Source of the DNA: Collinsella sp. AF02-46-1 | Lineage (GTDB): Bacteria; Actinomycetota; Coriobacteriia; Coriobacteriales; Coriobacteriaceae | Direction: 5' to 3' | Assembly (NCBI GenBank): GCA_934876235.1 | Contig: CAKXKM010000001.1 | Location: 832 to 64,831 of the forward strand | DNA length: 64,000 nucleotides | Part shown: positions 40,354 to 41,892 of the stretch, in pieces | Layout of the letters: every line of letters starts with the position of its first letter | Numbering within the stretch: the first letter of the stretch is position 1 | Position numbers and translations under genes: made by a program | Notes under the pieces: model-generated | The model's input: the letters and a program-made list of their open reading frames with translations, nothing else | Databases searched by the model: none | What the model was told of the DNA's origin: nothing

Positions 40354-41892
40354 ATGTCAAGAACCAATTTGAACAGCTCCACCACCCTCGTTCTTTCCCA
40401 TATTACTTATGCATATCCTGGCAGCGCAATGCCCGCACTCGACAACGTGTCGGCGACATTTGCCCCCGGCTGGCACGGCATCGTCGGAGACAACGGGTGC
40501 GGGAAATCAACTTTCGTCCGCATTGCGTGCGGACTTCTGATTCCAGATCGCGGCGTCGTTTCACCGCGTCTCGTCTCCGCATATTGCGCGCAAGAAGCCG
40601 GAGTCGAACCGCCCATGCTCTTCGATTTTGCGTGCGACTTCGCCCCGGCGACCACGCACCTCAGAAGGATGCTCCGCATCACCGATGATATGCTCTGGCG
40701 TTTTTCCGAGCTCTCCGGTGGCGAGCAGAAGAAAATTCAAATAGCCGTCGCGCTTTGGCAGAATCCCGATCTTCTGGCAATGGATGAACCGACTAACCAT
40801 GTGGACGCAGAATGCAGAAGGCAGATTTGCAAAGCACTCGCCGAGTACAAGGGTATTGGCCTCCTCGTCTCGCACGACCGTGCGTTGCTCGACTCCTTGG
40901 CAAAGGACTGCCTGTGCTTTGAGTCGGGGCACGTCACCATGCGCCCCGGCAACTACTCCCAAGCTCGCTCGCAGGCGAATCTGGAGCGCGAAAGCGCGGC
41001 GCGGGCCAAATCGATTGCGCGATCCAAAGAAAAGCGCATGAAGGCTGAGTATATCAGGCGCGTTGAAAACGCCTCACGGTCCGCATCCAAGAGAAGCGCC
41101 CGTCATGTCGATCCGAAGGATCACGACGCGAAAGCACGAATCAAACTCGCCATTCTCACTGGCAGAGACGGCGTTGCGGGCAAGCTCGCTTCGCGCATGG
41201 ACTCCCGAATCCAGCGCGCGCAAGCCGCCGTCGACGCCCACCATGTCGAAAAGCGCTACGAAAGCACCTTGTGGATGGAAGCGCAACCCAGCCCGCGCAA
41301 AACACTGATTCACGTCAGCTCAGATCGCATACCGTGCGGCCCGAGGCAATCTTTGCGGGTTCCCGAGATTTATCTGGGAAATACCGATCATCTGGGCATA
41401 AGCGGCCCCAACGGAGCGGGGAAAACAACACTGGTCAATCATATCCTGGAGATATTGGAAGGCCGCAAGGCCACGGGATTGGACATTCGCACGCTGTATA
41501 TCCCTCAGGAAGTCGACGATTCATCCTCAATTGAATTCCTCTCGGAAATCAAGGACCTGCCCCAAGCCGAACGTGGAGCCCTGCTTTCGATCGTTGCGCA
41601 ACTCAATTCGGATCCCGAACGAATATTGTCCGGCGAGAACATCAGCCCGGGGGAGCTGCGGAAGCTCATGCTCGCCCGCGGTATACTAGATGCCCCCGAA
41701 ATCATCGTCATGGACGAACCCACGAATCACCTGGACCTGCACTCGGTGGAGGCACTCGAGCGAGCGCTTTCCGCCTTTCCCGGCGCGCTTGTTTTGGTGA
41801 GCCATGACGAGCAGTTCCTCTCGGCCTCATGCCCCCTCCGCTTGGATTTGGCCCCAAAAGAGGAGCACACTATTGGTCAGCCCCTCCTCTAG
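40354..41892 (+). CDS. ABC-F family ATPase (two tandem NBDs, no TMD). Antibiotic-resistance (ARE) / ribosomal-protection type is likely.
   Basis: NBD1 has GDNGCGKST / LSGGEQKK / LAMDEPTNH. A basic about 70-aa interdomain linker follows (ERESAARAKSIARSKEKRMKAEYIRRVENASRSASKRS...). NBD2 has GPNGAGKTT / ISPGELRK / IVMDEPTNHLD. 512 aa, GGAGG Shine-Dalgarno. Confidence 0.8.
   Translation: MSRTNLNSSTTLVLSHITYAYPGSAMPALDNVSATFAPGWHGIVGDNGCGKSTFVRIACGLLIPDRGVVSPRLVSAYCAQEAGVEPPMLFDFACDFAPATTHLRRMLRITDDMLWRFSELSGGEQKKIQIAVALWQNPDLLAMDEPTNHVDAECRRQICKALAEYKGIGLLVSHDRALLDSLAKDCLCFESGHVTMRPGNYSQARSQANLERESAARAKSIARSKEKRMKAEYIRRVENASRSASKRSARHVDPKDHDAKARIKLAILTGRDGVAGKLASRMDSRIQRAQAAVDAHHVEKRYESTLWMEAQPSPRKTLIHVSSDRIPCGPRQSLRVPEIYLGNTDHLGISGPNGAGKTTLVNHILEILEGRKATGLDIRTLYIPQEVDDSSSIEFLSEIKDLPQAERGALLSIVAQLNSDPERILSGENISPGELRKLMLARGILDAPEIIVMDEPTNHLDLHSVEALERALSAFPGALVLVSHDEQFLSASCPLRLDLAPKEEHTIGQPLL

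Follow-up and report, generated by a model that had tools for sequence, protein, structure and literature searches.

Published ABC-F genes for resistance to pleuromutilins, lincosamides and streptogramin A carry three-codon upstream open reading frames (uORFs), with the peptides MR[I/M] for CplR, MK[L/Q] for VmlR2 and MIN for VmlR (PMC10201436, PMC9226507). The leader of vmlR ends in a hairpin that sequesters the Shine-Dalgarno site (PMC10201436; PMC9226507). Drug-stalled ribosomes on the uORFs of ARE ABC-F genes remodel the helices downstream (PMC10201436, PMC9226507, PMC8546547). The subject of this report is an ABC-F gene in a stretch of 64,000 nucleotides from Collinsella sp. AF02-46-1 (contig CAKXKM010000001.1), referred to as the window. 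Like the leaders of vmlR in Bacillus subtilis and cplR in Clostridioides difficile, the leader of this gene has a Shine-Dalgarno site and a three-codon uORF in or against a helix, followed by a final sequestering hairpin. Its family of peptides, Met-Lys/Arg-X, resembles those of vmlR2 and cplR. It differs from the vmlR and cplR leaders in having no sequence similarity to them and in an extra 5' hairpin (P1) with a near-invariant loop, which has no published counterpart. Not all members of the clade have a canonical U-rich terminator; compact members appear to be purely translational.

The surrounding mobile element also has described relatives. Streptococcal integrative mobilizable elements of IME_Class_4 encode a Rel_PF01719-PF00910 relaxase (Coluzzi et al. 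2017, PMC5357655). They share with the window element the order of an FtsK/TcpA-like gene, a relaxase with Rep_OBD and RNA_helicase domains and a tyrosine integrase at one end, and likewise insert site-specifically into a gene end between flanking direct repeats. The window element differs in its Collinsella host, a relaxase broken by a TAG codon, a borderline TcpA match, a target at the 5' end of a phosphatase gene and the lack of a recognised excisionase. A second comparison is the layout of Tn916, in which the attenuator of the resistance gene tet(M) lies upstream of the transfer genes. In both elements a leader and a resistance-type gene head a co-oriented block ending in a Tn916-type integrase; in the window the protein is an ABC-F and not Tet(M). 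The reading that we prefer, with a probability of about 0.7, is that the gene encodes an ARE-type ABC-F under a drug-inducible, ribosome-mediated attenuator, and is cargo of a 7.5-kb integrative mobilizable element. The features of the cargo module are as follows.

40007-41892, plus strand: cargo module (candidate promoter, leader and ABC-F gene), delimited by blastn
40034-40042, plus strand: candidate extended -10 element TGTTAGACT, at a position conserved among leaders
40058-40084, plus strand: P1 hairpin with the 7-bp stem GCGCAGG/CCAGCGC, from covariation
40088-40116, plus strand: purine-rich Shine-Dalgarno tract GGAAAGGAAAAGGA and three-codon uORF, conserved across leaders
40115-40196, plus strand: P2 long-range helix, in which AGACGAUAC (40115-40123) pairs with GUAUCGUCU (40185-40193), with UUUU at 40193-40196
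40240-40279, plus strand: hairpin with a perfect 10-bp stem and a 20-nt loop, from folding; lineage-specific
40331-40350, plus strand: hairpin GCCUCC/GGAGGC that would sequester the Shine-Dalgarno site, from minimum-free-energy folds
40354-41892, plus strand: ABC-F ATPase of 512 aa, ARE1-like accessory clade, from profile, sequence and fold comparisons

The ABC-F gene is an uninterrupted frame of 512 codons with GGAGG 5 nt ahead of its ATG. Its product contains two ABC_tran domains (Pfam). Walker A motifs are found at residues 45 and 351, the signature is LSGGE (120) in the first half and ISPGE (430) in the second, both halves have DEPT as Walker B, and the H-loops are at 172 and 482. The highest Kyte-Doolittle value over 19 residues, 1.19, predicts no membrane segment. 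Domain matches, motif positions and hydropathy thus agree with an earlier note on this DNA, made from the sequence alone, which had described two complete ABC domains without a transmembrane domain and an ABC-F protein rather than a transporter. That note had also described a basic linker of about 70 residues. The linker is indeed basic (pI 11.1, 24 Lys and Arg), but it is about 97 residues long (200-296).

Structure prediction from the single sequence was unusable (pLDDT 37), whereas an AlphaFold model from a 66-sequence alignment has a pLDDT of 87.8. In this model the linker is a helical hairpin, formed by helix 201-247, a tip at 248-256 and helices 257-295. The protein therefore has the ABC-F architecture of two tandem ABC domains, no transmembrane domain and a helical linker of the PtIM/ARD type. 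The clade shows no variation at the two catalytic glutamates or the two H-loop histidines. The best Foldseek matches are VmlR2, VgaL and LsaA (TM-score for LsaA 0.77/0.79), ahead of EttA, and the best sequence match in the PDB is LsaA, in a single full-length alignment that includes the linker. LsaA (7nhk), VgaL/Lmo0919 (7nhn), VmlR2 (8buu) and VmlR (6ha8) resemble the window protein in their two ATP-binding domains, a basic helical hairpin of similar length and the absence of a membrane domain. They are only 20-24% identical to it, their hairpin tips are unrelated to its own (RSARHVDPKDHDAK), and their hosts are Firmicutes, whereas the window clade is hosted by Coriobacteriia and Bifidobacteriaceae. 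By analogy with these proteins, the window protein would bind the ribosomal E site.

The sole other copy of the element compared in full, a metagenome copy about 99.8% identical to it (L116, 930-2327), has lost ABC-F residues 239-285 (47 residues) in frame. The deleted residues are exactly the tip of the helical hairpin. The same copy is also without 12 nt just 3' of the leader hairpin at 40240-40279. The tip deletion may reflect a natural loss of function or an error of assembly.

Its sequence places the protein in an accessory clade of ABC-F proteins from Coriobacteriia and Bifidobacteriaceae. The NCBIfam model NF000355, 'ribosomal protection-like ABC-F family protein', is the best model for all 66 aligned clade members (best E-value 2.7e-96). 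A homologue in Atopobium rimae, WP_003149997.1, is 47% identical over 391 residues (E = 3e-120) and has the same domain order. It is classed as ARE1 by Murina et al. 2019 (PMC6723617; sequence in Table S2). In the tables of that study the usual set in Coriobacteriia is EttA, Uup and YdiF, to which some add a fourth, ARE1. The A. rimae protein is likewise an accessory fourth ABC-F beside EttA, Uup and YdiF; the window copy differs from it in lying on a mobile element. Judged by pairwise identity and profile scores, the window protein appears nearer to classified ARE members than to EttA, Uup, YdiF, YbiT or YheS.

The distribution of the clade is patchy: it forms an extra fourth ABC-F in some Coriobacteriia genomes, and homologues are found in differing genomic contexts. 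Homologues that are 52-57% identical are common in Collinsella, Slackia, Olsenella and Eggerthellaceae, and those that are 34-45% identical are found in Bifidobacterium and several other phyla. A protein cluster at 99% identity is labelled Collinsella. No element genes lie within 9 kb of distant homologues in 80 species-representative genomes. In the plasmid collection there was no DNA match, and protein matches did not exceed 31% identity. One homologue (P0011, locus L247) has a 545-aa gene call (7001-8638) that begins inside the conserved leader at 6961-7021. This call is over-extended, and some long clade members in databases are probably mis-started.

The leader was compared between the upstream regions of the window gene and of three homologous loci (given L-numbers here), L110 (81% protein identity), L112 and L030 (both 66-67%). 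More leaders were added by a metagenome scan for the loop motif and by a covariance model. A conserved block lies at 40034-40196, with a further conserved part at 40331-40350. The block begins with TG-n-TAnnnT, 15-18 nt upstream of P1 in the window, L110, L112 and L030; TAnnnT is found in L031, L055 and L065. This sequence is a candidate promoter element. A consensus scan of the leader for promoters and terminators returned nothing beyond chance, and did not call the -10 candidate at 40034-40042.

P1 is the best-supported structure. Across nine leaders 93.7% of cells are paired, and compensatory double changes are found at 7/7 pairs. Its covariation score is 1.048, compared with 0.259 for shuffled alignments (0/500 reach the observed value) and at most 0.35 with slid partners. 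The stem differs by lineage (GCGCAGG/CCAGCGC, GCGCGAG/CUUGCGC, CCGGAG/CUCCGG, CGUCGGCG/CGCCGGC, GGGUCU/AGGCCC, GGGUUU/GGGCCC, AAAUCCU/AGGGUUU and CAAAGG/CCUUUG). The 13-nt loop CCCAUAUGCCAAG (40065-40077) is identical in 11 lineages, namely the window, L030, L031, L055, L065, L110, L112, L202, L225, L247 and L248, which reach from Collinsella to Bifidobacterium. A covariance model search added five Coriobacteriia leaders with a second loop variant, CCUUUGGCAAG. The metagenome scan for the loop motif gave 120 matches, five of which have a flanking stem and lie 120-290 nt upstream of an ABC-F homologue. Most of the 120 are chance matches or coding sequence of an unrelated gene (GGTCTCGT...CGCCTCAC). 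One further match with a stem (L183) precedes a NUDIX gene and was judged to be probably chance.

The loop contains the self-complementary CAUAUG and an AUG. A longer uORF starting from this AUG (MPS... or MPR...) was rejected as the conserved coding unit, since leaders differ in its length, its peptide and its frame relative to that of the three-codon uORF. A downstream pairing partner for the loop, as in a pseudoknot or kissing interaction, was also rejected, as only inconsistent matches of 6-7 nt were found.

The uORF of the window is GTG AAG CTG TAG (40105-40116), encoding Met-Lys-Leu. In 16 leaders a Shine-Dalgarno site is followed by a start codon, a Lys or Arg codon, a third codon and a stop. 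GTG, ATG and TTG all serve as start codons, and four different codons are used for Lys/Arg; the peptides are MKL in the window and MKF, MRA, MRV, MRL, MRI, MKN or MRF elsewhere. P2 is present in 9/9 leaders examined. Its 5' arm overlaps the uORF stop codon, as in the window, or begins 0-5 nt after it. P1 and P2 are independently predicted by RNAalifold on seven compact leaders, and the window P2 segment folds with z = -2.06. The sequence that follows the 3' arm of P2 varies: it is UUUU in the window and L110, a long U-run in L202, and directly the ABC-F Shine-Dalgarno site in the compact leaders L031 and L225. The hairpin GCCUCC/GGAGGC is part of the minimum-free-energy folds of the window, L110, L112 and L030; CCUCC..GGAGG blocks are also found in L033, L035, L059 and L071.

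The suspicion in the earlier note that the leader holds a ribosome-stalling attenuator, to be sought as a short uORF with alternative folds, is supported by conserved anatomy: the three-codon uORF, P1, P2 and the Shine-Dalgarno hairpin. The hairpin that the note had pointed to is a different structure. In it, 40240-40249 (CCGTCGACTC) pairs perfectly with 40270-40279 (GAGTCGACGG), and it is real and stable (-21.5 kcal/mol, z = -3.84, 0/200 shuffles as stable). As a conserved regulatory structure it does not stand: it is absent in register from L110 (the 81%-identical homologue), L112 and L030, and is confined to near-identical copies of the element. The conserved attenuator is found 40-200 nt further upstream. 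The hairpin was also rejected as a terminator or transfer origin, since it is not conserved, has no U-run behind it and is located within the cargo module.

At the left end of the element, the ABC-F gene comes first. The element is bounded by a 26-nt direct repeat (39601-39626 and 47150-47175; 92% identity, 19-nt identical core, spacing 7549 bp), and has a GC content of 54.2%, compared with 59-61.5% in its flanks. All of its genes are on the plus strand. Its features outside the cargo module are as follows.

39589-39651, plus strand: orphan 5' remnant of a low-molecular-weight phosphatase gene (MQRVLFICHGNIC, then RFRKMPS and a stop)
39601-39626, plus strand: attL, core TCTGTCATGGGAACATCTG, from a repeat search
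39682-39720, plus strand: left-end repeats, TTACGAC twice and one inverted-repeat arm, from a repeat search
42401-42947, plus strand: two small ORFs of 58 aa (42401-42577) and 72 aa (42729-42947), called in all copies
42948-44339, plus strand: candidate FtsK/TcpA-like coupling protein, 463 aa (Pfam FtsK_SpoIIIE 23.4 bits, cut-off 24; borderline)
44509-45699, plus strand: rolling-circle Rep-type relaxase frame (Rep_OBD 44509-45030, RNA_helicase 45091-45699)
45772-46977, plus strand: Tn916-type tyrosine integrase, 401 aa, from Pfam and PHROG
47138-47584, plus strand: target gene, low-molecular-weight phosphatase, from Pfam LMWPc and the att layout
47150-47175, plus strand: attR, in the first codons (5-13) of the phosphatase gene, from a repeat search

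The integrase is supported by Integrase_DNA (96.8 bits) and Phage_integrase (111.2 bits) in Pfam, and by PHROG 1 integrase (E = 4e-60). Direct repeats, GC content, and integrase and relaxase domains together uphold the earlier view of a lower-GC integrated element with the ABC-F gene first. The orphan remnant has its ATG at 39589 and its stop at 39649-39651, and shares LF(I/V)CHGNIC codons with the intact gene at 47138. From the layout of attL and attR, the element inserted in the 5' end of the phosphatase gene and supplied a new ribosome-binding site, start codon and first four codons. The catalytic CHGNIC motif of the phosphatase is kept despite the replaced N-terminus.

That note had also proposed that the gene is horizontally transferable. 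For this copy, current mobility is doubtful, on account of an in-frame stop in the relaxase and the finding of every copy at one site. The relaxase frame is split by a single in-frame TAG (45028-45030), and this split, or some variant, recurs in every copy whose gene calls span the region. The TAG is a read-through site or, alternatively, a nonsense mutation that became fixed and left the element immobile. An identical context is found in GCA_934869335.1, and every copy among the matches listed (look-ups with ABC-F, RpiR, phosphatase and PfkB) is at the same chromosomal site. No empty or second insertion site was found among the matches listed; the phosphatase look-up is biased, as the N-terminus is supplied by the element. 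On another Collinsella contig (L237, 5318-7132) a different Tn916-type element, with a 398-aa integrase and other small genes, occupies the same phosphatase site. Integrases of this family thus seem to use the site as a hotspot.

The cargo module is also found in another context. By blastn, window positions 40007-41840 are 80.7% identical to L110 positions 5311-7144, and similarity ends at both edges. At 210-5062 and 7905-8183 of L110 lie an ABC-F of the Msr family (679 bits, cut-off 680), a pump that resembles Mef(A) but is divergent, a fragment of an IS30 transposase and an excisionase. The module thus has macrolide-resistance genes as neighbours there, and the region looks like a composite resistance island. 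As the module is shared with this unrelated context, it has moved between mobile contexts.

The proposed mechanism follows the described ARE systems. A soluble twin-ATPase of this kind would bind the ribosomal E site and push its helical hairpin (here about 201-295) towards the peptidyl-transferase centre, and insertion of the hairpin would dislodge the bound antibiotic. Without drug, the uORF at 40105-40116 would be translated and vacated quickly, and P2 (40115-40123/40185-40193) would form. The transcript would then stop at the U-run, or would stay untranslated with its Shine-Dalgarno site locked in 40331-40350. The very short uORF points to inducers that act at initiation or close to it. 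With ribosomes frozen at that stage or just past it, as by a pleuromutilin, lincosamide or streptogramin A, one of them would be parked on the uORF and cover the 5' arm of P2. P2 could then not form, and the ABC-F would be expressed. Macrolide-responsive leaders encode longer arrest peptides. In compact leaders control would be directly translational; the window copy may combine termination at the short U-run with opening of the Shine-Dalgarno hairpin. The architecture of the protein, its clade, the conserved and covarying leader and the borders of the element are observed; ribosome binding, drug induction, the drug spectrum, a resistance phenotype and the step that is controlled in this copy (termination or translation) are inferred.

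Several points weigh against this reading. NF000355, although the best model, gives the window protein 300.4 bits, under its cut-off of 380 bits, and the query and its 65 homologues are all under that cut-off. The named-family NCBIfam models give still lower scores (Msr 190, Lsa 170, Vga 164, producer type 160, CplR 153, Sal 138 and OptrA 104 bits), and all of their cut-offs are missed by far; these are 680-1450 bits, with Msr, Lsa, Vga, CplR and Sal at 680-780. The ARE1 label of the A. rimae relative is itself a computational assignment, made by profile searches and a tree (PMC6723617). Many homologues are stably chromosomal and adjoin a Peptidase_S58 gene, and a native physiological role is therefore possible. 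Literature linking ABC-F proteins with these Coriobacteriia did not turn up. In the leader, only four U follow P2 in the window and none follow it in L112 and L030, so that intrinsic termination there is uncertain; the terminator scan found no terminator within the leader. Constrained folding of the window copy with a ribosome footprint on the uORF left the Shine-Dalgarno hairpin closed and gave no clear antiterminator. Lastly, the model assigns nothing to the invariant loop of P1.

The P1 loop is the starting point of a different interpretation, which we regard as unlikely. Here the leader would be an undescribed RNA class with P1 as a recognition element for the ribosome, the ABC-F or another factor; or drug-induced read-through would extend into the mobility genes. 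The loop CCCAUAUGCCAAG is constant while the stem has been rewritten in at least 11 lineages, which would imply a response beyond simple uORF stalling if P1 is a recognition element. A search of the leader against Rfam gave a sole match, at chance level (E = 6) and on the opposite strand. A text search of the literature gave no occurrence of the loop 13-mer. The mobility genes all lie downstream in the same orientation, so that transcripts induced by a drug could read into them and activate excision and transfer as well, as is described for Tn916.

The missed cut-offs and stable chromosomal neighbourhoods of many homologues would also suit a translation factor of the housekeeping type, such as YdiF, Uup, EttA or YbiT, that was picked up by the element, tunes translation and is unrelated to antibiotics. 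The architecture is common to all ABC-F proteins, and EttA structures also match with high Foldseek probability. We consider this quite improbable. The window protein is only 25% identical to YdiF of A. rimae, compared with 47% to the ARE1 of the same genome. Its first-domain segment from Q-loop to signature is short (about 38 residues), and alignment with YdiF needs a large insertion there. The EttA, Uup and YbiT-type models score 155-174 bits, about half of the 300 bits of the resistance-type model NF000355; the housekeeping models taken together span 135-174 bits. The clade is a patchy fourth copy in Coriobacteriia that already have EttA, Uup and YdiF, and a conserved leader with a three-codon uORF is a hallmark of drug-induced ABC-F genes. 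The grouping with ARE-type proteins put forward in the earlier note holds on these identities and scores, and by the same measures the protein does not cluster with the housekeeping clades, which would have told against it.

The protein might instead be an antibiotic-sensing regulatory ABC-F that relays a 'ribosome inhibited' signal, possibly to the transfer genes of the element, and confers little resistance itself. There is a precedent in LmrC of Streptomyces lincolnensis, an attenuator-controlled ARE ABC-F that acts as a signal transducer (PMC8546547). The element genes downstream of the ABC-F gene are co-oriented with it, and no strong terminator was found after its stop codon, only a weak terminator-like site at 42341-42356. 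The same module is present, however, in chromosomal sites and in L110 with other downstream genes, which argues that its function is independent of this element. We consider the regulatory role very improbable. A role in phage defence or element maintenance, with the gene as defence cargo of the kind that mobile elements often carry, is hardly credible: the PADLOC matches to mad3 (146 bits), AriA, PtuA and GajA models cover generic P-loop and signature segments only, partner genes of these systems are absent and the small ORFs nearby are without match, the full-length fold with its helical hairpin linker is that of ribosome-binding ABC-Fs, and the leader is of the translation-sensing type.

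On the preferred reading, the locus is an uncharacterised, attenuator-controlled ARE-type ABC-F gene on an integrative element. Its leader is outside Rfam and includes one highly constrained loop, that of P1, unexplained by any published model. Collinsella and its relatives are abundant human gut commensals. In standard annotation the clade is labelled only 'ABC transporter ATP-binding protein'; with this generic label and the missed cut-offs, resistome surveys that rely on curated cut-offs would miss the clade. If the protein does protect against lincosamides, pleuromutilins or streptogramin A, it would represent a widespread hidden resistance reservoir. This reservoir would already be packaged with its own sensor in a 1.9-kb module. 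At least two mobile contexts contain the module, and in one it adjoins macrolide-resistance genes of the mef/msr type. The leader also offers a clean, testable case of three-codon-uORF attenuation in high-GC Gram-positive bacteria.

Some minor features of the element should also be described. An 18-nt perfect inverted repeat joins 39703-39720 with 45728-45745, just upstream of int. TTACGAC is found at 39682, 39693, 46984 (minus strand) and 47013; these are four of the nine copies in the window, and all lie within about 165 nt of the element ends. From their positions, TTACGAC and the inverted repeats may be candidate arm-type or autoregulatory sites of the integrase. The two small ORFs at 42401-42947 have no match in Pfam, PHROG or PADLOC. 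The FtsK/TcpA-like ORF is called at 463, 421, 400 or 314 aa, or split into 203 and 83 aa, among copies (L001, L005, L020), which suggests start-codon ambiguity or gene decay in some strains.

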